Shown here: positions 10,316 to 51,004 of the stretch, piece after piece
How positions within the stretch are numbered: the stretch's first letter is position 1
Layout: every line of letters starts with the position of its first letter
Source: Escherichia phage vB_EcoM_JNE01
DNA length: 64,000 bases
Reading direction: 5' to 3' (one strand)
Sequence record: OR670491
Position numbers and translations under genes: made by a program
The notes under the pieces: generated by a model
Told to the model about the DNA's origin: nothing
What the model saw: the letters and a program-made list of their open reading frames with translations, nothing else
Databases searched by the model: none

Positions 10316-12979
10316 TTATTGGCAAGCCTCAATTCGACGTGCCATTAATTCTGCACGACGTGTGGTTTGTCTGTACCAAGCAGAGTTACGGATTTGTGCA
10401 GCAGCTTGCTTGTAATCACCTTTAGCTAGACAACTAAGCATAGTTTTAAATTTAAGAACACCACCTTTACCCATCTGGAATACCATTTGACATAGAACTT
10501 GCTGTGCCATATATGGCGTTTTCATGTTATAAGATGCATAAATTGATTTAGCATCATTAATCGCTTTAGTACTGTCCCTTACAAGCATATCGTTTGCTTC
10601 TTGTTCAGTAATGCCGCCGCTGAAATTTTCACCGCTGATAATCAAGTGTCCATAACCTATAGTTGGGAATCCACGACTATCTATATATCTCCAGAATTTA
10701 CCATTACGGAAATATCCTTTCGCTGCTTGATATTGTTGAGTACCTTCATATTCTTTCAATTCAGATGTAAATTGAGCATCACCAGGTACAACTTTCCAAT
10801 CAATTGCCGTTTTATCAACGGTTCCAACATTATATGATTCTTGCTGTGATGCAGCAGGAGCAGAAGTAGTTCGTTGTGTTCTTCTACGTCTAGGAACATG
10901 ACGAGAACCACGTTGTGAATAACCCGTACCGATAGTTTTGATTTTAGTTGATACAACCAATTCATCACTATCAACTGAAGGTTGAACTACTGCTTTTGGT
11001 GCGGCTTGGTTTGTTGCCTGACCTGCAATTAAGGTTTTATTTGCTGCATCAGAACCAGTACCAGTTTGTGAAGCATAGAATAACCCTGGGTCAACAGAAC
11101 CACTGAAACCGTACACACTTGATGATGTAACACGAATCTCAAACATAATGACACCATTTGCTGTACCGATTTTTTGTCCTTTTTGTACAACATCTTTATT
11201 CATCAAATCAGATTTGATATTAAAGAATACAGATTTGTATCCAGACTTATGCTGAATCAACAGTCCACCATTGGTTGCTGCGACAACACCGCCATCAGGG
11301 GCAACAATATCACCTCTGCATTGGATTTCCCAACCACTACTATCAACTTTACCACCACCTGCGACTGGTACGTTTTTACCCCAGTAACCATTCTGACGAA
11401 TAGTACCGCTACATGGCATAAACATATGCAAACCTTCATATGTAATCGTATATCCGGTCATACCAGGATCAGAAGTCATTAAATCTTCGGATTGAACTGA
11501 TTCTGTTTCTTGTGTATAGTTAATAAATTGTACTGCTTCTGTATCTTGTGCTTCTGCTAGTTCAGGAGCTACGTCATTAGCTGGTTGTGGCTGTACTGGT
11601 GCAGTAGTTGATGATCTACCACCACCTTGATATGGAGGCTCAACAGTACTTCCATGATTTTCTGCATCAACCCAGTTAGAAATGTTATGAATATGGTCAT
11701 TTAATCCAGCAGAAGGTGTTTTAAAATCAGGAGCAGAGAACATTGCAGTACCAGTATTACCTGCACTATCAACAGTTAAGTTCTGACCACCACCACTGAT
11801 GTTTACAGATGAACCACCTATTACGTTTGCACTGCTTGAACCTTTAATAGATGCAGATGAGCCAGCAGTGATATCAGTACTGCTACCACTTTGTAAACGT
11901 AGAGAAGCGGCTGTTACTAGACGTAAATCTGCACCAGAGTTCAATACAATTTGACCACCTACTTTTGCATCCAAATTACCAATTAAATCTAATTTAGTTT
12001 TACCACCAATTCGGGCATTTAGGTCTTGTCCACTCTCTATATTATAAGAACGTCCTGCAACCATGTTAATATCTTGACCAGCACGAATGTTAATGTTCTT
12101 ATCACAGTGCATGTCAATATCACCGTCACCTGAGAATCTAATACGTGCAGTACCGTCACGGTTAATCAATAGAACGTCTCCAGTGGCTTCAGAAAGCAAC
12201 AATTGAGCACCACTGCGTGTCTTTATGACTACACCTTCATTCTTACGAGAACCAACTCTGGTGTCGTTTACGGGGTTATTAAATTGTGTATCCTGGTAAC
12301 CATCTGGATCATCATCCCAAGATGGAGCAGTTAATTCTTCTTCAGTGTATCCATCATCAATAATAAAACTATTCCCGCGTGGTGATGACATACCATAGAC
12401 AGTACTGGTAGTTTGTCGAGTACTGCTGCGGTTTGCTACGCCTGCTTCTTCATCATATAGCAAGTTTTGCTTTTTAAGACCTGCGATGATAGGCACGTTT
12501 GCATATTTTTCTTGTGTAGTTGATGAAAGTGTGTTACGGTCATAGTCAGTTACTGGTAATGGCATATCAGTACCACCATAGTTACTTACTTCGGTAGCCA
12601 TACCAGGAACCATAGTGTTCATTCGTTGATCATAAACACACCCAATCCAGTATGCTTGGAATGTACGAGCCTGTGCAAATATAACAACCACAGTACAACC
12701 AACATCTGGAGGTACAGCCCAAAAACCATACCCTTTAGGGAACTGACCATAAGCTTCCGCACTTGGAATGCCTGGTGTTTTCCCTGCGAATGGAGACATG
12801 TAAGATGCTTCAATCCATGACTCCTTCGAGTTCTTGTCACTTTGTGAACCCTGAATCCATACTTTCAGTTTTCCTGATTTGGTAGGGTCACGGTTATCCA
12901 TTACTGTTGCCAGTTGTGGATAAGAAGGGTCGAAACGACCCAACTGTTGTTGTGCATACTTCTTACTAGTATCTGCCAT
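10316..12979 (-). CDS. Baseplate central spike gp5-like protein with beta-helix, degenerate M23/LytM-like region and C-terminal T4-type lysozyme domain
   Basis: N-terminus DNRDPTKSGKLKVWIQG resembles gp5 OB domain (DPTLKGRVKVRVHG); Gly/Ser-rich beta-helix-like repeats mid-protein; C-terminal 160 aa carry TIGYGHL / MVFQMG / WYRQT lysozyme motifs and are paralogous to the adjacent 162-aa lysozyme. Confidence 0.75.
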   Translation of the reverse strand: MADTSKKYAQQQLGRFDPSYPQLATVMDNRDPTKSGKLKVWIQGSQSDKNSKESWIEASYMSPFAGKTPGIPSAEAYGQFPKGYGFWAVPPDVGCTVVVIFAQARTFQAYWIGCVYDQRMNTMVPGMATEVSNYGGTDMPLPVTDYDRNTLSSTTQEKYANVPIIAGLKKQNLLYDEEAGVANRSSTRQTTSTVYGMSSPRGNSFIIDDGYTEEELTAPSWDDDPDGYQDTQFNNPVNDTRVGSRKNEGVVIKTRSGAQLLLSEATGDVLLINRDGTARIRFSGDGDIDMHCDKNINIRAGQDINMVAGRSYNIESGQDLNARIGGKTKLDLIGNLDAKVGGQIVLNSGADLRLVTAASLRLQSGSSTDITAGSSASIKGSSSANVIGGSSVNISGGGQNLTVDSAGNTGTAMFSAPDFKTPSAGLNDHIHNISNWVDAENHGSTVEPPYQGGGRSSTTAPVQPQPANDVAPELAEAQDTEAVQFINYTQETESVQSEDLMTSDPGMTGYTITYEGLHMFMPCSGTIRQNGYWGKNVPVAGGGKVDSSGWEIQCRGDIVAPDGGVVAATNGGLLIQHKSGYKSVFFNIKSDLMNKDVVQKGQKIGTANGVIMFEIRVTSSSVYGFSGSVDPGLFYASQTGTGSDAANKTLIAGQATNQAAPKAVVQPSVDSDELVVSTKIKTIGTGYSQRGSRHVPRRRRTQRTTSAPAASQQESYNVGTVDKTAIDWKVVPGDAQFTSELKEYEGTQQYQAAKGYFRNGKFWRYIDSRGFPTIGYGHLIISGENFSGGITEQEANDMLVRDSTKAINDAKSIYASYNMKTPYMAQQVLCQMVFQMGKGGVLKFKTMLSCLAKGDYKQAAAQIRNSAWYRQTTRRAELMARRIEACQ

Positions 12980-12990
12980 TTTAAATTTCC

Positions 12991-15129
12991 TTATTCGATT
13001 ATACTATCATGTCGCTTCAATGCACGAATAACGATAGCGGCTTGTATTTGTTGTGTGAAAGAGCCACCTGCACCAAAATCATGAACAATCTTATTAATTC
13101 GATAGATAGTTTGGTTAAATGTAGTTGGAGTTGTGATATCCAATACACCAGTATTATCATTGATAGATACAACTGGTTGCAATTTCAATAAAAGATAAGC
13201 TTCGGATGTTATATAGTTTGCAACGTGGTAATCTTCTGGATTTATTTCCATATCTTCACCATTGATAACTTGTTCAAGATATTGGAGATAAGAATAGTCA
13301 CTCCAGCCAATCCAGAATGGGTCACCAACAACTTTCATATCTAATTTACACAAGAATGGTCTATTATAATAGTTGTCACGTATTTTACGTCTATCCATTT
13401 CATATGTGCTACTGTTATCGTTAAGAGATGCAGATAGTGTTGTTTCATTATTCGTTGCTTCGGTTGGCATAGTGAATATTTCACCATTTCTGTGACCAAT
13501 ACCATCAGTACCGGAGTCACTTGAATCATATGTAGTTACATAGTCTTCAATATAATCAGGTAATACGTTAACTTGATAGTTATTAAGTCTGTCTTGTTCA
13601 TCAGATGCACCAACTTGCATGATATTCTTAGCTGCGTTCTCAACTTTATCCAATAATTCCTGCTGTGCTTGTGTAATCATACCACCAACACTCTTAGTTG
13701 CACGAATATCCTTTGTTGCAGCCCATGCTTCGGGTATACTATTGTACTGAACACCTTGAATATTCAATTCTTGTGATGCGTGAGTGCCCTGATGGTTCGC
13801 TACATCTTGGATTGGGCCTGGGTTGCGAGTAGTTGCAACAAAAAATTGCTGATCGAACTTCAAGTCCAAATCCAATACTTCTGTGTTTAAACCAGAGAAT
13901 TGATAATTATAAGTTTTCATGTTTATTTTTGGTTTATTGTCATTTGGGTCAACATATTTCTCTGCGTTCTCAAAAAAGTACTCAAATGTGAAGTTTTCTG
14001 GTTGCAAATCGTTCTCATGAACGACATCACCAATTTTAAATCTCACAATATAGAAAACGACCTTATAAACTGATGTGTTACGATAATTATCGAACCCTAC
14101 ATATTGTTTAACCGGAATAATGTTAACAAATTGACGTACACTGGTACTTTCATCAGCCCTTACTGTGCATGTATCAATAACATCATCGATAATACGAGAT
14201 ATTGGTGTACTTGGGTTCCATGAGAAGTTTTTAGAACCCTGACTTCCACTCTTTGTCGCACCAGTTTCTGCCATTTGCTTTGAATCATAGTTAATTATCA
14301 AATCTTGTAGGTCTGGTGCGACTTTAAACTCAAAGAACTTACCTTCAGATAGTTCACTGAATTTATAACGCAAGTAACCGTATTGCTGATCAGCCATTTG
14401 ATTCAATTTGTCTTCAATATCAAAACAAAAATCACCAAAGTTCTCTGCTACACAGGTGAATGGTTCTTTTAAAGTCCATTCCACGTTATCTACAAGGGCC
14501 GCACGGTTGTGTACTAACGATAATGTGTACAGCATAGTACTTCCACTCTCAGATGCACTTGCTGCAACACTGTTAATCTTAACAGACCATTTACGGGTAG
14601 TGTCTGGAATTACTTCTGGACGACCATCAGCATTAAAACCTATAAATTTCAATTCTAATATCAAAGGTAAGTCCATAAATTTATGGTAACGTAATTTATT
14701 ACTTAAAGAAATTAGTTCATCATACAAACTCATACTATTGTTTTCAGATATCTTCATTACTGCGGTGTTGAAGCAGTAGTTAGTAGTCATGCCAGGTGTT
14801 GATGGTCCTGCTTGCGTCATCTGAACACTTGTGATATTATACTTACCAGTTACACCACTTTCCGATATAACATGACGTTGAACTTCAGCATTTGGCAAGA
14901 GCCAGAAGTTTTTGAAGTCATCTTTATCAAGTGCAAACAAAGAAAAGTGCCATGTTGGGTTGTCATACTTAAGAAGCTTGTTCTCATAAGGTATAACGAA
15001 CTCCGACAAGTCCAAATCTTCATACACTTGGTCAACACTAGTGTTTTGTTTAGGAAGTGATTGCAAATTACTTACTTGTGCTTTATAATTGTTCTTAAGG
15101 TTTGATGCCATACCTTTAATGTCTGCCAT
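12991..15129 (-). CDS. Baseplate structural protein (hub candidate, gp27/gpD position)
   Basis: 712-aa ORF directly upstream of gp5-like spike in same operon; no motif-level match verified. Confidence 0.35.
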   Translation of the reverse strand: MADIKGMASNLKNNYKAQVSNLQSLPKQNTSVDQVYEDLDLSEFVIPYENKLLKYDNPTWHFSLFALDKDDFKNFWLLPNAEVQRHVISESGVTGKYNITSVQMTQAGPSTPGMTTNYCFNTAVMKISENNSMSLYDELISLSNKLRYHKFMDLPLILELKFIGFNADGRPEVIPDTTRKWSVKINSVAASASESGSTMLYTLSLVHNRAALVDNVEWTLKEPFTCVAENFGDFCFDIEDKLNQMADQQYGYLRYKFSELSEGKFFEFKVAPDLQDLIINYDSKQMAETGATKSGSQGSKNFSWNPSTPISRIIDDVIDTCTVRADESTSVRQFVNIIPVKQYVGFDNYRNTSVYKVVFYIVRFKIGDVVHENDLQPENFTFEYFFENAEKYVDPNDNKPKINMKTYNYQFSGLNTEVLDLDLKFDQQFFVATTRNPGPIQDVANHQGTHASQELNIQGVQYNSIPEAWAATKDIRATKSVGGMITQAQQELLDKVENAAKNIMQVGASDEQDRLNNYQVNVLPDYIEDYVTTYDSSDSGTDGIGHRNGEIFTMPTEATNNETTLSASLNDNSSTYEMDRRKIRDNYYNRPFLCKLDMKVVGDPFWIGWSDYSYLQYLEQVINGEDMEINPEDYHVANYITSEAYLLLKLQPVVSINDNTGVLDITTPTTFNQTIYRINKIVHDFGAGGSFTQQIQAAIVIRALKRHDSIIE

Positions 15130-20333: not shown

Positions 20334-20359
20334 AAAAGGGAGCCTTAGCTCCCTTTTTT
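20334..20359. terminator. Bidirectional rho-independent terminator between convergent genes
   Basis: AAAA-GGGAGC-CTTA-GCTCCC-TTTTTT. Confidence 0.7.
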
Positions 20360-20836
20360 CACATGCAACATATTTAATTTACCTTCCTTGATAAGCTTCC
20401 TAGCTTGCTTTACACGAGCAGCATTGTTAGCACCAGGGATGATATCGTACTCTTCCAGAATAGCGTTCTGTTGGGCTGCTGGGAGCCTTTTAAACTTACC
20501 TACATCAACTGCTAAAGCAGTGTGGTGTATAATCTGTTCCTCTTCAGGGATGCTATTATTTTTCTCTAAATAGTCTGCAAGATTACGCAGTACTTCGTAT
20601 AGGGGTTTATCAGTTAAGTGCTTCATATAGCGATTAAAGCTGTTCTGAACCTTTCCTTCCCATGCGTTCACTTCATTCTGGAGTACTTCACGACAGTGTT
20701 GATTCTCGAAGTGATAGTGATCCAGTACTGGTTTAGTGATAGTTTCTTTGATGATAGGATCTATACCTTTTTGTTTTTTAAGTAATTCATTTCGATAGTT
20801 TGCAGCGTCTTTACTATCTTTCAATCTTCGTTTCAT
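20345..20836 (-). CDS. Hypothetical protein (163 aa)
   Basis: ORF with plausible length and context; no recognisable motif. Confidence 0.5.
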   Translation of the reverse strand: MKRRLKDSKDAANYRNELLKKQKGIDPIIKETITKPVLDHYHFENQHCREVLQNEVNAWEGKVQNSFNRYMKHLTDKPLYEVLRNLADYLEKNNSIPEEEQIIHHTALAVDVGKFKRLPAAQQNAILEEYDIIPGANNAARVKQARKLIKEGKLNMLHVKKGS

Positions 20837-20949
20837 AAATCCCCTCTTAACTAATTCCTATTGAAATATTTATGCGTTAGTTTTCAGTGCAGGAACTAAG
20901 TACTTTTTCATAAAAAAATCACATAATACTGAGACACTTTTAAAAAATG

Positions 20950-20958
20950 TGCTATAAT
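20950..20958 (+). promoter_or_regulatory. Extended -10 promoter TGCTATAAT reading into ORF-free region
   Basis: TGnTATAAT match; no protein gene downstream on plus strand. Confidence 0.4.
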
Positions 20959-20959
20959 G

Positions 20960-21413
20960 TTTATTGTAGTAATGACAATCCTGTTGAATGCAGAAATGCA
21001 TATAAATTAGAACCTGATCCTATCGAAAACGTAGATGGCAGATGAGCAGTTCAACAGTGCGATGAGCAAAAGAAACCCGTCAGATGTGGGCATAGTTTGA
21101 ACCCCTCACGGCAATGCGGCTCAATAAAGAACTCCGATAAGATACAGAGAGTTCCTCGATAGACATATAAGGTAAATTCCTTACCAGATTATCTAAGGGA
21201 GTTTTTGATTTATTTCAAAAACAGCTTGAAGTTTGATTGTATAGACTTTCAAGTGAGTGTCAGGATGTTTAAGACTGACGACCGTTGCATATGACTGCGA
21301 TAGAGAGAAACAGAGCAACCCGCTTTCGTTCTTAATTAATTAAGAAATTCGCAATACAATAATTCCGATGCCATCAGCGTCAAGATTAAGAGACTTCATT
21401 GTCTCTTTTTTAT
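20960..21413 (+). ncRNA. Candidate noncoding transcription unit (about 450 nt) bounded by promoter and terminator; function unknown
   Basis: No ORF with RBS; upstream extended -10; internal hairpins (e.g. ATGCA-GAAA-TGCAT around 20990-21005); ends at AGAGAC-ttcatt-GTCTCT-TTTTT terminator 21389-21411; local GC visibly higher than flanks. Confidence 0.3.
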
Positions 21414-21613
21414 TATCTTCATTCCCCTGCGGGGGGATGAAATATCCTCAACAAATCCCGTCAAGTATTAAATCATTTAAAGTTCTTTATAATTATATTA
21501 AAATGAATATGAGTTACGTCAGTAACGAATATTCTTCAGCTAACGAATGAAATGAGTTAGATGAGTTCAATATAATCCTTCTAGTATAATTCAAATCATC
21601 ATAATTTAGATAC

Positions 21614-21638
21614 AAAAAAAACCAGCAATAGATGCTGG
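21614..21638 (-). terminator. Rho-independent terminator (minus strand) after minus-strand operon 22696-21651
   Basis: Minus-strand reading CCAGCA-tctat-TGCTGG-TTTTTTTT. Confidence 0.65.
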
Positions 21639-21650
21639 CTTAGTAGTGAG

Positions 21651-21863
21651 TTACTGCTTCCCGTTGAGTTTTTTAATTTTCTTATTAAATGACTTAACTA
21701 ATAAATTCCTGTCAATTACTGGCATATTAAGGAGTGTTCCGTAGTCAATATTTTCCATATTCACAGCACACTCCATAAGTGCTTCTTTGATCTCTTTTTT
21801 ATTCAGTTCTATTTCCTTCAAAAATTCTTGAATTTCTTCTGGAGTTGACTGGAGAAGCGTCAT
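21651..21863 (-). CDS. Hypothetical small protein (70 aa)
   Basis: ORF translationally coupled (4-nt overlap) to upstream gene 21860-22696. Confidence 0.45.
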   Translation of the reverse strand: MTLLQSTPEEIQEFLKEIELNKKEIKEALMECAVNMENIDYGTLLNMPVIDRNLLVKSFNKKIKKLNGKQ

Positions 21864-22696
21864 GCGAAAAAATGACTAGGGTCATACTTGAGTCCTTCAA
21901 TTTCCCATTGATGAGAACACTCACTGCATTCAACTTCCATAGTATGAGAAATACCTACTTCAAGTACTTCATCCATTTTTTCTTTGATTACTTTAATAAC
22001 TGCTTTGGATTGTTGTCCTAACCATTCTACAATGAATTCCTTTTCAGTTACTTCATCCCCGTCAGGAGTAATAATTTTGTTAATGACTCCAGCGATCATA
22101 TCGAAGTTCAACTGTGCCATCTTTTCAAAGATCTCACCAAATAGTTTAATTTTCTCTTCTTCTTCAATACCAGCACCTTCTAAGTACTTACTTTTCTGCT
22201 GTTCTGCGAACATACGTTCAGCAAAGTCAGAGTATTCCTTCCAAGTCAAAGGACGAAACTCCAAAGTAAGTCCGTTATCTAGGTTGACAGTCGGTACTTC
22301 TTCGAATACACTAGCAGTCTCAAGTAGGAAACTTAAGTCACGTTCAAAACGTCCTTCTTTGTGACATTCAGGACATTCAACGTTGACATCATAAGTAGTT
22401 TCTTTAGATGCTACTTTAATTGCGATAAGAAGTTGCTCAATGTCGTTGACATACAATCCATCTGCATCTATAATGTTTGGTACGCAGTTCTCGATAACAC
22501 GGGATACAGATTCACCACTCAAAAGCATGTCAGGGGTGTTAAGTGTCATCTCATCACGAGCACTACGAGCACAAATGCCACATTTTACGCTTTTACTACC
22601 GAGAACACCTTCACTGTAAGGGATCACGGCATTACTGATTAGTTTAGTACTAAGTTCTTCAATTTTAGTGTATTTTGCTAATGGGTTCATAGCCAT
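21860..22696 (-). CDS. Hypothetical protein with paired Cys-x-x-Cys/His zinc-ribbon-like motifs
   Basis: VKCGICARS, VECPECH, VECSECSH motifs; acidic coiled-coil-like middle. Confidence 0.5.
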   Translation of the reverse strand: MAMNPLAKYTKIEELSTKLISNAVIPYSEGVLGSKSVKCGICARSARDEMTLNTPDMLLSGESVSRVIENCVPNIIDADGLYVNDIEQLLIAIKVASKETTYDVNVECPECHKEGRFERDLSFLLETASVFEEVPTVNLDNGLTLEFRPLTWKEYSDFAERMFAEQQKSKYLEGAGIEEEEKIKLFGEIFEKMAQLNFDMIAGVINKIITPDGDEVTEKEFIVEWLGQQSKAVIKVIKEKMDEVLEVGISHTMEVECSECSHQWEIEGLKYDPSHFFA

Positions 22697-43240: not shown

Positions 43241-43281
43241 AAAAATCTCCTTGTCAAATTTTGTGCAGGATTCTCCTGCTT

Positions 43282-43296
43282 GATATTATTTATCAA
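43282..43296 (-). promoter_or_regulatory. Late-promoter-like motif (minus-strand TGATAAATAATATCA), proximal copy
   Basis: Motif shared with capsid-gene upstream region. Confidence 0.4.
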
Positions 43297-43344
43297 AAAT
43301 TATCCAGTGGCATTTAAAAATAACTGAATTACCCTTGACTCTAT

Positions 43345-43359
43345 GATATTATTTATCAT
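43345..43359 (-). promoter_or_regulatory. Late-promoter-like motif (minus-strand TGATAAATAATATCA), distal copy
   Basis: Second exact copy about 63 bp from the first. Confidence 0.4.
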
Positions 43360-43465
43360 TTCTGGGACAGCAGCTAAAGATGTGCTACAATTATTAACGA
43401 AATACAAAGAAAACGGAGATTTCATATGCATTACCATTAAACATAAATGGCGACCTGAATGGTAA

Positions 43466-49683
<6,218 letters not shown>

Positions 49684-49734
49684 GTAGTTTGTCGGAGGAA
49701 TAAAAACCCTCCGACAAATTTTCGAAAAAATATT

Positions 49735-49764
49735 TTGGAACGCTTTAAAAACCAATGATATAAT
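49735..49764 (+). promoter_or_regulatory. Sigma70-type early promoter P2 (TTGGAA-18-TGATATAAT)
   Basis: Second copy of the repeated promoter unit. Confidence 0.5.
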
Positions 49765-49811
49765 GAAGTTTGTAAGACGATACATGGTGTTGAATCTTAC
49801 GAAAAAAATCC

Positions 49812-49840
49812 TGAACGAATCAAGTTCAGGTGATATAATG
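49812..49840 (+). promoter_or_regulatory. Sigma70-type early promoter P3 (CTGAAC-17-TGATATAAT)
   Basis: Third copy; its -35 lies inside hairpin CCTGAAC-gaatcaa-GTTCAGG. Confidence 0.5.
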
Positions 49841-49936: not shown

Positions 49937-51004
49937 ATGCAAACTCTAGCTGAAATTCGTGCAAAACTAAAAGCGGAACAAGAAAAAGCAGAAGCTCAAA
50001 AGAATGGTACTTTTACTGGTGAACGTAAAGCCGATTCTTTCCTAGCTTTCTGGAACGTTCCTTATAACGAACCACTAAACCTACGTTTTCTTCCAGATGC
50101 AGATGAAAGCAACCCTTTCTTCTGGCGTGAACGTGATATGATTAACCTGACTTTCCAAGGTGTAGTAGGTCTTCACACTGATAAAGTTACCGTACAAGTA
50201 CCTTGTAACGAAATGTGGGTTCCTAAATCATGTCCAGTACTGAAAGAAGTTCGTCAATGGTTCCAAAGTGCGAATGAATCTGGTGATGAAGAACTGAAAG
50301 CTATGGCTGGTCGTTACTGGAAAAAGAAAACCTATCTAATGCAATGTTTCATCGCTCCTGATAGTGTTGCAGTAAAAGATGACATGGCTCCAGAAAACCC
50401 AATTCGTCGTATTCTAGCTAACAAAGATATTTTCGATAAAGTAAAATCTATTCTACTGAATCCTGGTATCAAAGAACTACCAACTCACTACACTCATGGT
50501 CGTGACTTCGGTATTGTTAAGACTAAGAACGGCGGCGGTTACAACAGCTACGATATGTCTCAATTCTCCATGTCCGAGCGTGAACTAAACGCAGACGAAA
50601 TGGCAGCTATTGAAAAATATGGTCTATACAATCTAAATGATTTTATGCCTAAACAACCAACTCCAGAAGAACTAACAGCAATCGCTGAAATGTTCGAAGC
50701 TTCTGTAAATGGTGAAGCATATGATCCAGCACGTTGGGCTTTCGCATACCGTCCAGCAGGTGTTCAAAAACCTGTAACTGGTGGTTCTGCTCCAGCAGCA
50801 CAACCTGCTCCACAAGCTCCAGCAACACCACAACCTGCTCCACAGGCAGCGGTACAGGAATCTACTCCTGTTACTCCAACTGCTCCTGTTACCCCAGCAG
50901 CACAACCTGCTCCAACTGCTCCAGCATCAACTGGTACTGAAGCACCAAAAGAACAACTATCTGCATCTGCTCTAGTTGCTCGTTTGAAGCAACAAAGCAA
51001 GTAA
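49937..51004 (+). CDS. Single-stranded DNA-binding protein, T4 gp32-like, with atypical Pro/Ala/Gln/Thr-rich C-terminal region
   Basis: LNLRFLPDADESNPFFW parallels T4 gp32 IRFLPSKNDEQAPFA; Cys/His-containing core; upstream of uvsX. Confidence 0.65.
   Translation: MQTLAEIRAKLKAEQEKAEAQKNGTFTGERKADSFLAFWNVPYNEPLNLRFLPDADESNPFFWRERDMINLTFQGVVGLHTDKVTVQVPCNEMWVPKSCPVLKEVRQWFQSANESGDEELKAMAGRYWKKKTYLMQCFIAPDSVAVKDDMAPENPIRRILANKDIFDKVKSILLNPGIKELPTHYTHGRDFGIVKTKNGGGYNSYDMSQFSMSERELNADEMAAIEKYGLYNLNDFMPKQPTPEELTAIAEMFEASVNGEAYDPARWAFAYRPAGVQKPVTGGSAPAAQPAPQAPATPQPAPQAAVQESTPVTPTAPVTPAAQPAPTAPASTGTEAPKEQLSASALVARLKQQSK
50765..50935. repeat. Low-complexity nucleotide/peptide repeat inside SSB gene (CAACCTGCTCCA-type units; PAPQ/TPVTP)
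   Basis: Repeated CACAACCTGCTCCAC units; generates multiple spurious overlapping ORFs in other frames. Confidence 0.6.

Follow-up and report, generated by a model that had tools for sequence, protein, structure and literature searches.

A gap between protein genes at positions 20837–21650 of the 64,000-nucleotide (nt) stretch of Escherichia phage vB_EcoM_JNE01 analyzed here (sequence record OR670491; hereafter, the window) almost certainly harbors a member of a family of structured non-coding RNA genes. The best explanation overall, to which about an even chance is given, is a self-contained long non-coding RNA gene whose folded RNA would act in trans. With Escherichia phage Turkey5 the region shares 99.3% identity, and the genome that hosts it belongs to a jumbo phage that is Rak2-like and of the Asteriusvirus type. 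An earlier note on the window had pointed to 20940–21650 as an unusually long locus free of open reading frames (ORFs), locally richer in GC than its flanks, and had proposed a candidate structured non-coding RNA. The gap contains no ORF longer than 60 amino acids (aa) and is the largest among the ORFs lying fully within the window on a greedy ORF map (531 nt after accepting a chance 60-aa ORF), the median inter-ORF gap being 55 nt. The GC content is 38.8% in the core and 26.6 and 27.0% in the flanks. The proposal of a structured RNA is supported by about 20 covarying helices, by the non-coding character of the locus, and by a promoter kept in 31 of the 34 family members checked.

A Family of Homologous Loci With a Covarying Fold

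A BLAST search with the gap returned matches in 71 phage records, at four to five places in each, the phages having Escherichia, Salmonella, Klebsiella, Cronobacter, Serratia, Yersinia, Erwinia, and Pectobacterium as hosts. Outside the genus the identity amounts to 66–74%, which is unusually high for intergenic DNA. In phage ECO103 4-12-1 (350 kb), for example, the four copies lie on one strand, at 18.5, 128.5, 208.3, and 261.7 kb, and are about 70% identical to one another. Pattern scans of IMG/VR and of metagenomes, followed by profile searches, yielded 61 distinct full-length members, to which two from bacterial chromosomes were added, and all the copies were recovered by nhmmer. Rak2-like sizes were seen for every IMG/VR match with a fully sampled contig (about 350–380 kb) and for the larger of the metagenome contigs, and the rest are fragments. 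Four copies per genome were found in Asteriusvirus/121Q, five in GAP32, BF, and CBB, and two in RaK2. Clustering revealed paralog groups common to several genera, so that the duplications are old and each copy has been kept. The ortholog group of the window is syntenic (endonuclease VII/hub gene) out to Salmonella phage 7t3; no conserved protein neighbor was found across the RNA copies.

A structure of 22 helices was drawn from the alignments, where many helices show both strands changing together, and was scored on 31 members aligned by MAFFT without regard to structure. In these 31 sequences, standard pairs occupied 84.9% of the cells as against 38–46% when the partners were slid, 75 of the 108 pairs had changed on both sides (24–36 in the slid controls), and the covariation score was 0.365 versus 0.148 in shuffles, with none of the 500 shuffles reaching the observed value. 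When all 61 sequences were considered, the 88 best-aligned pairs were 93.3% paired, and G-U cells were far more frequent than A-C cells (409 versus 90), indicating that the plus strand is the folded strand. The minimum-free-energy z-score of the plus strand was −3.67. Across the 61 members, an identity of at least 97% was reached at 91 positions, and junctions account for many of these. Compensatory changes in aligned relatives, for which the earlier note had recommended a search, were thus found well beyond the slid and shuffled controls. The comparative data strongly support a fold under selection with about 20 helices, four of them predicted to be long-range or pseudoknot helices.

Non-coding Status and Comparison With Known RNA Families

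Every reading frame across the locus holds at least eight stops, the substitutions are without three-periodicity, and most of the indels (1, 2, 4, and 7 nt) are not multiples of three. A coding-type substitution pattern, which the earlier note had named as counter-evidence, was looked for in the relatives and was not found. Some depositors have annotated short "hypothetical proteins" here, as might be expected of a decayed protein gene or of a DNA-level repeat without RNA function. This explanation is left with a practically negligible probability by the stops and indels, the lack of codon periodicity, the compensatory changes, the strand-specific G-U pairs, and the differing strand and position of the annotated ORFs between records; the pseudogenised remnant offered as an alternative in the earlier note is excluded by the stops, the lack of codon periodicity, and the compensatory changes. 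The annotations concerned are those of the Turkey5 and 7t3 records, in which short ORFs run across the RNA gene (window positions 21438–21551 and 20870–21001; positions 1372–2310 of locus L057), and which vary in strand and position. Such depositor ORFs are almost certainly spurious calls.

The covariance-model scan that had been suggested was run against Rfam 15 (4227 models), and at the gathering threshold no match was obtained in the whole window. At E values up to 10, nothing was found over the core in the window or in 17 loci with other members, the only permissive matches being to terminator-like small RNA models outside the element. ARAGORN detected no tRNA or tmRNA genes in the window. 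The RNA family is described nowhere in the full-text literature searched on Rak2-like and jumbo phages, non-coding RNAs, ornate RNAs, and ribozymes, and a keyword search of the UE-S1 and CBB genome papers gave no mention of it. Four non-coding RNAs were detected by RNA-seq in PA5oct, a distant relative; these were considered as homologs and rejected, as the signature motifs are absent from them save for isolated 6-mers and nhmmer gave E > 0.1. As judged by these comparisons of sequence and structure, the RNA belongs to none of the known RNA families against which it was tested, and it is rated a new class.

Promoter and Transcript 5' End

The earlier note had placed a plus-strand extended −10 element at 20950–20958. 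It was found to be present there (TGCTATAAT, with GAGACA 16 nt upstream), preceded by a −35-like TGAGACA (20930–20936, plus strand) that conforms to the family consensus of TGRRACR, a 16-nt spacer, and then the −10. As matches to TGNTATAAT number 12 in the window against 5.6 expected, a lone match is not significant; the −10 match is meaningful because TGnTATAAT was kept at the equivalent place in those 31 of 34 members, paralogs included, 25–35 nt before the first hairpin (P1) and with TGRRACR upstream. Hence, directly upstream of the RNA gene, a promoter of the sigma-70 type is predicted, with an extended −10 and a −35 typical of phages, and transcription would start near 20965. The leader strand at 20981–20987 pairs in the long-range helix PK3, placing the 5' end of the RNA upstream of 20981, and this fits a start near 20965.

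The report on phages CBB and GAP32 describes a "divergent RpoD-like" promoter class with a −35 of TGAAACG, and in CBB promoters of this class lie upstream of DNA-synthesis genes (PMC5259590). The promoter of the RNA fits this TGAAACG-type class, and promoters of the same class also precede protein genes within the window. Three tandem promoters of this class, about 80 bp apart, were observed at 49650–49840 (TTGAACA/TGGAACG/TGAACG, spacer, TGATATAAT), in a 278-nt ORF-free gap upstream of a plus-strand gene starting at 49938. Behind the first of these come a terminator-like hairpin (GTCGGAGG...CCTCCGAC, 49691–49718) and AAATTTT, which could give rise to a very short transcript.

Architecture of the Folded RNA

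All elements of the fold are given on the plus strand. The 5' leader strand of PK3, CUGUUGA (20981–20987), pairs with the loop of P3 (UCAACAG, 21051–21057) through 7 bp, of which six covary, and the window copy shows a matched 1-nt deletion on both strands. The GNRA-loop hairpin reported in the earlier note corresponds to P1 (AUGCA-GAAA-UGCAU, 20988–21001), a hairpin present in all members inspected with differing stem sequences; its column count is 55% paired, and MAFFT aligns it poorly. P2 (21019–21038), a hairpin with a bulged U, is 98% paired with five of five pairs changed on both sides, and its 9-nt loop GAAAAYGUA is nearly invariant. P3 (21046–21060) is 100% paired, as is P4 (21063–67/21119–23, within 21063–21123), which encloses P5 (21077–80/21108–11; 99% paired) and P5a. 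The latter hairpin is variable, with short and long forms, and in two loci (L019 and L013) a UUCG tetraloop caps P5 instead. Like the GAAA loops, this tetraloop is a cap specific to RNA and speaks for a folded transcript. P6 (21129–21154) is 93–95% paired with all pairs covarying, and its loop (AGAU, 21140–21143) forms PK6 with AUCU at 21191–21194; three of the four pairs are 98% paired, and the variants among members include AGAU/AUCU, AGCA/UGCU, and GACA/UGUU. P7 (21168–21183) is 90% paired. The 3' strand of PK6 is followed by a single-stranded invariant UAAGGGA (both within 21191–21200), whose AAGGGA is at least 97% identical in the 61 members.

The stems of P8 (21201–21222) covary by eye, and the low column count of 52% is due to differing lengths. 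P9 (21223–21254), recovered by the helix search too, is 95% paired over the 61 sequences, and its 6–7-nt loop (21236–21242) constitutes the 5' strand of PK10. P11 (21259–21279; 92% paired) precedes the pseudoknotted core (21284–21353), which shows the highest sequence conservation and comprises P12 (21284–88/21315–19; 100% paired), P13 (21296–300/21349–53; 99% paired), Px (21303–07/21323–27), and the P14 hairpin (21330–45). P12 interleaves with P13 and Px, its 3' strand lying inside the Px loop. Px was invariant in the first 31 sequences, and compensatory changes on both of its strands were supplied by the diverged RaK2 copies. The 3' strand of PK10, AUACAAU (21354–21360), pairs with the P9 loop through 7 bp, of which six covary, at 96–99% paired. 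P15 (21367–21381), which ends in the first CGUCAAG motif, is uncertain as a hairpin because it is only about 50% paired. The four long-range contacts, which a covariation search brought out, are thus leader/P3 loop, P6 loop/J7/8, P9 loop/post-P13 strand, and Px loop/pre-P13 strand.

Private long-range-helix sequences for each paralog, as for orthogonal assembly, were considered and rejected, as three CBB copies share the PK10 sequence. An optional insert of 40–60 nt (GUACAA...CGUC module) was observed at the P8 tip in many members and at the P14 tip in others. In this module, AAUUUUG...GUACAAnAnAG...CGUC(C)AAAAUU, the sequence is kept more than the pairing (e.g., L020, L017, L025, L029, and L019; alignment columns about 300–350 and 480–510), and the short motif CGUC(A/C)A occurs up to five times per RNA.

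The 3' Part of the RNA and Its Genomic Setting

The hairpin with a T-run that the earlier note had taken for the terminator of the locus is present at 21389–21412 (P16, AGAGAC-ttcatt-GTCTCT plus T run, plus strand), where it was also called by the terminator scan. The hairpin with its U6 resembles a terminator and covaries in the manner of one (94.5% paired, five pairs covarying). It is missing in some paralogs, namely in two of the four 121Q-like paralogs (groups c261 and c18), and conserved structure continues downstream to at least 21565. P16 is therefore an internal, optional hairpin and not the 3' boundary of the conserved element. The GC-rich hairpin with a 10-bp stem lies where the note had placed it (P17, 21418–21441, plus strand) and carries a near-invariant GGGGGGA. 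P17 occurs once in the window and exactly four times in the whole 350-kb relative, only with the RNA copies. It is followed by a conserved single-stranded tail, CCUCAACAAAUCCCGUCAAG (21445–21466, plus strand), which in the window and in the whole relative genome was likewise found nowhere apart from RNA copies. All members inspected have P17 and the tail CAAAUCNCGUCA, apart from L053 and L050, which are the most diverged or truncated of them. A partner of the tail, or a helix closing the 5' and 3' ends, was searched for; the duplex predictions were no better than shuffles, and the helix search gave no covarying partner. The tail (CUCAACAAAUCUCGUCAG) may resemble the rrn/lambda boxA, a likeness that is not relied on here.

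Beyond the tail lies a 3' extension (21513–21565, plus strand) made of E1 (21513–17/21522–26), the motif CGAAUAUUCUU, and E2 (21535–65). CGAAnnUUCUU was found beyond the tail in 25 of 60 members, flanked by two hairpins of differing stem sequence. At many other loci the 3' extension is followed directly by the ribosome-binding site of a same-strand gene, and a same-strand ORF begins within about 150 nt downstream (80–150 nt) in 35 of 50 copies. Taken together, the RNA gene is predicted to begin at about 20965 and to reach at least 21565 on the plus strand, giving an RNA of roughly 500–600 nt.

At the window locus, the gap is bounded on both sides by minus-strand genes: the endonuclease VII gene (20345–20836) on the left, and on the right a 70-aa ORF and then the gene named baseplate hub subunit by the depositors (21651–22696). 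Downstream of the RNA gene, convergent genes are faced and there is no same-strand gene for about 1.2 kb; in all the genera sampled, loci of this type are flanked on either side by genes on the opposite strand. A hairpin at 21608–21641 ends the convergent minus-strand genes (terminator called at 21641–21619, minus strand). Read on the plus strand it has no U run after it, and as a stop for the plus-strand RNA it is a possible but weak candidate. In ECO103 4-12-1, a 318-aa minus-strand ORF (128961–129917; 28961–29917 of L006) lies between endonuclease VII and the RNA gene; it is absent from the same place in the window and is possibly a selfish gene that has inserted there. Among the ORFs fully inside the window, the gap at 43241–43498 (258 nt) ranks third in length of those free of ORFs.

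The arrangement of the 3' part brings in a cis-acting transcription leader as an explanation, where the RNA would act on its own polymerase or sense a factor and so gate passage through P16, either by processive antitermination like the HK022 put RNA or as an attenuator- or riboswitch-like device. Copies do lie directly behind a promoter (TGnTATAAT in the 31 of 34 checked), P16 and its U run stand behind the structured body in most members, the same-strand ORF follows 35 of 50 copies with the extension ending at its ribosome-binding site in several groups, and the copies on bacterial islands (see below) are likewise followed by same-strand ORFs. One transcription unit per copy would also explain the retention of all the paralogs. 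Put and EAR RNAs would share with the new RNA the paralogous copies behind promoters, the position upstream of terminators and same-strand gene arrays, and a folded nascent RNA; HK022 reportedly contains a pair of paralogous put sites, with a promoter in front of each. However, with about 70 nt and two stem-loops for the put RNA and about 120 nt for EAR, these RNAs are small next to the new RNA, which at 400–600 nt with four long-range helices far exceeds any known antiterminator RNA. Moreover, the ortholog group of the window, the most widely syntenic one, faces convergent genes, lacks a same-strand gene over about 1.2 kb, and has no operon behind it, and P16 is missing in two paralog groups. 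A riboswitch-like device is further opposed by the alignment, where no alternative pairing of P16 with the core was seen and where the core is fixed but P16 is free to covary, and by the downstream genes, which are unrelated between loci and lacking at the window locus. A cis-acting leader is considered rather unlikely but is the main rival of a trans-acting RNA.

Copies on Bacterial Chromosomes

Of 5,426 complete E. coli genomes, two were found with an intact chromosomal copy, one in each, and among species-representative genomes one intact chromosomal copy was found in Citrobacter amalonaticus. The chromosomal copies are 69–81% identical to the phage copies and 78% identical to each other, with the promoter, the leader pairing, and all the motifs intact. 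In E. coli LR-29-1 (NZ_AP027515.1), the copy (L099, 11900–12560) is located in an island integrated beside ffs, which encodes a tyrosine integrase interrupted by IS3, along with a resolvase and proteins with DuOB, DUF488, and mSLOG-DUF4326 domains. The copy of Citrobacter amalonaticus P55 (L100, 3480–4131) has a large serine recombinase on one side and, on the other, a repressor of the CI type together with a Cro-like regulator. Both islands share a 118-aa protein that is widespread in Enterobacterales and that, in the Klebsiella and Yersinia contexts examined, is found in islands at the same chromosomal site. Island proteins adjoining or downstream of the RNA showed no homologs in Rak2-like jumbo phages. 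As islands and phages have no RNA-adjacent genes in common, the unit shared between them is the promoter with the RNA. The plasmids searched gave no match to the RNA, and a pattern match in a Lewinella genome was discarded as a chance match for want of a profile match. Downstream of the RNA copy in the LR-29-1 island, a 700-nt ORF-free stretch (L099, 12545–13258) was observed, with repeated ATCGATCG-type motifs at about 12975–13025 that look like iterons or operators.

The ffs-locus island of Klebsiella pneumoniae (L102, 6520–6790) contains a "mini" locus from which the ornate body of roughly 400 nt is absent. A promoter of the same type comes first, followed by AUCUCGUCA, a terminator resembling P16, a hairpin resembling P17, the tail CAAAUCUCGUCAG (...CUCGUCAG), and a shared downstream hairpin. 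Since this locus lacks the body, the 3' module (P16, P17, and tail) is separable from it. The Yersinia island versions have neither the full nor the "mini" locus.

The separable body is also what a self-processing ribozyme or a mobile RNA element might show, with the core as the catalytic site and the CGUCA(A)G repeats at 21078–83, 21378–84, and 21459–65 marking processing or insertion boundaries. The "mini" version lacks exactly the ornate body, as if the latter were separable and bounded by motifs, the junction nucleotides are invariant around a compact pseudoknot core, and there are several copies per genome. The interleaved P12 and P13, with P14 between the 3' strands, superficially resemble P3/P7/P8 of group I introns. 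However, the order of helices is unlike that of a group I core: only 7 nt, and no P4–P6 domain, lie between the 5' strands (those P3-like and P7-like), and there is an extra helix, Px, inside. The new RNA further differs from these introns in having no flanking exons, no match to the Rfam Intron_gpI model, its own promoter, and opposite-strand neighbors. No ribozyme or intron family in Rfam was matched, even at E values up to 10, and the paralogs occupy syntenic sites, hence giving no sign of recent mobility. A ribozyme or mobile element is thus regarded as very improbable.

Possible Function of the RNA

The dispersal of the copies raises the alternative of an RNA-primed replication origin, in which an RNA-DNA hybrid near the 3' end would prime the leading strand as in ColE1 RNA II or T4 oriF/oriG. 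Several one-strand copies are dispersed at roughly even spacing over a 350-kb genome, the flanks are AT-rich, and the promoter class precedes DNA-synthesis genes in CBB. T4 oriF and oriG use middle promoters; T4 has several origins in its large genome, and a middle-type promoter would be a feature common to these origins and the new RNA. The distance of about 500 nt from promoter to tail and the invariant G6 run resemble the promoter-driven structured transcript of about 500 nt with a G run near its 3' part in ColE1 and at the T4 origins, and an origin that needs only host factors would be a portable module for islands. On the other side, GC skew is unchanged at any copy, AT content is no higher downstream than upstream, and near the island copies no autonomous replication genes were seen. 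Four pseudoknots and about 90 invariant positions exceed the needs of a primer, and conserved structure runs 100 nt beyond the G run. The new RNA thus differs from the ColE1 and T4 systems in lacking a skew or unwinding-element signal, in having no evident antisense regulator, and in being more elaborate and more conserved. The replication origin that the earlier note had listed as an alternative has nothing specific in its favor and is considered improbable.

A trans-acting folded RNA is favored over these alternatives because the unit is self-contained, moves between unrelated contexts, and, at the locus conserved most widely, has no gene that it could regulate. As the promoter-RNA unit moves and is kept whole, and as no same-strand gene follows for 1.2 kb, the folded RNA itself is taken to be the product. 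It would work in trans as a compact particle, binding a conserved partner or assembling with itself, with P16 serving as a leaky internal stop; by their look, the invariant junctions could be a binding or active site. That the RNA forms such a trans-acting particle is given somewhat less than an even chance.

The closest analogs in character are ROOL and GOLLD, large "ornate" RNAs of phages and prophages with structures solved by cryo-electron microscopy; a covarying "tertiary" helix of ROOL turned out to be an intermolecular kissing loop (PMC12286853). The new RNA is similar to these in being phage-encoded, several hundred nt long, and built of many helices, multiple pseudoknots, and conserved junctions with no known partner protein, and its long-range helices could be intermolecular too, as in ROOL. 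ROOL and GOLLD probably act as trans particles and are analogs only of the new RNA, which differs from them in giving no covariance-model match even at E values up to 10 and in having two to five diverged paralogs per genome, own promoters, and an internal terminator-like hairpin. They often lie beside tRNA islands, whereas ARAGORN found no tRNAs in 40 short member loci, and in the whole-genome relative the nearest tRNA island is 12–16 kb from an RNA copy.

Several points weigh against a trans-acting RNA. The 35 of 50 copies that sit 80–150 nt upstream of a same-strand ORF are placed as a cis leader would be, and the conserved 3' extension at loci of this kind runs into the ribosome-binding site. 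A terminator-like hairpin right behind a large sensor-like body is the architecture of a riboswitch or attenuator, and a cis role would explain more simply the long retention of four to five syntenic paralogs. The long-range helix sequences are common to paralogs in one genome and so give no sign of paralog-specific assembly. The partner protein is not known, and no transcriptome of any Rak2-like phage was found in the literature searched.

With the trans-acting RNA still preferred, a broader picture can be put forward tentatively, at a confidence clearly below even. The locus may be a portable module of promoter and RNA carried by giant lytic phages and host islands, and the RNA may be an RNA-only or RNA-protein machine or a nascent-RNA device that reprograms the host RNA polymerase, in which case the island copies could be decoys or hijackers directed against the jumbo phages.

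Significance of the RNA Family

To our knowledge, large RNAs with such conserved tertiary structure are rare, the known examples being ribosomal RNA, RNase P, introns, and a few unexplained bacterial and phage RNAs. The loci described here also show that spurious small ORFs have been called across them by annotators. The family is tractable, as it occurs in the culturable E. coli phages 121Q, PBECO4, and phAPEC6, its two to five paralogs per genome invite deletion genetics, and its well-defined fold suits structure determination. Natural variants are at hand as well, namely those without the internal hairpin, the "mini" version without the body, and the chromosomal island copies. The presence of the RNA in jumbo phages and in islands with conflict-system-like genes (SMODS, DuOB, DUF488, and mSLOG-DUF4326) may point to a function in conflicts of phages with their hosts or with satellites. 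New classes of large structured RNA have each eventually revealed new biochemistry.

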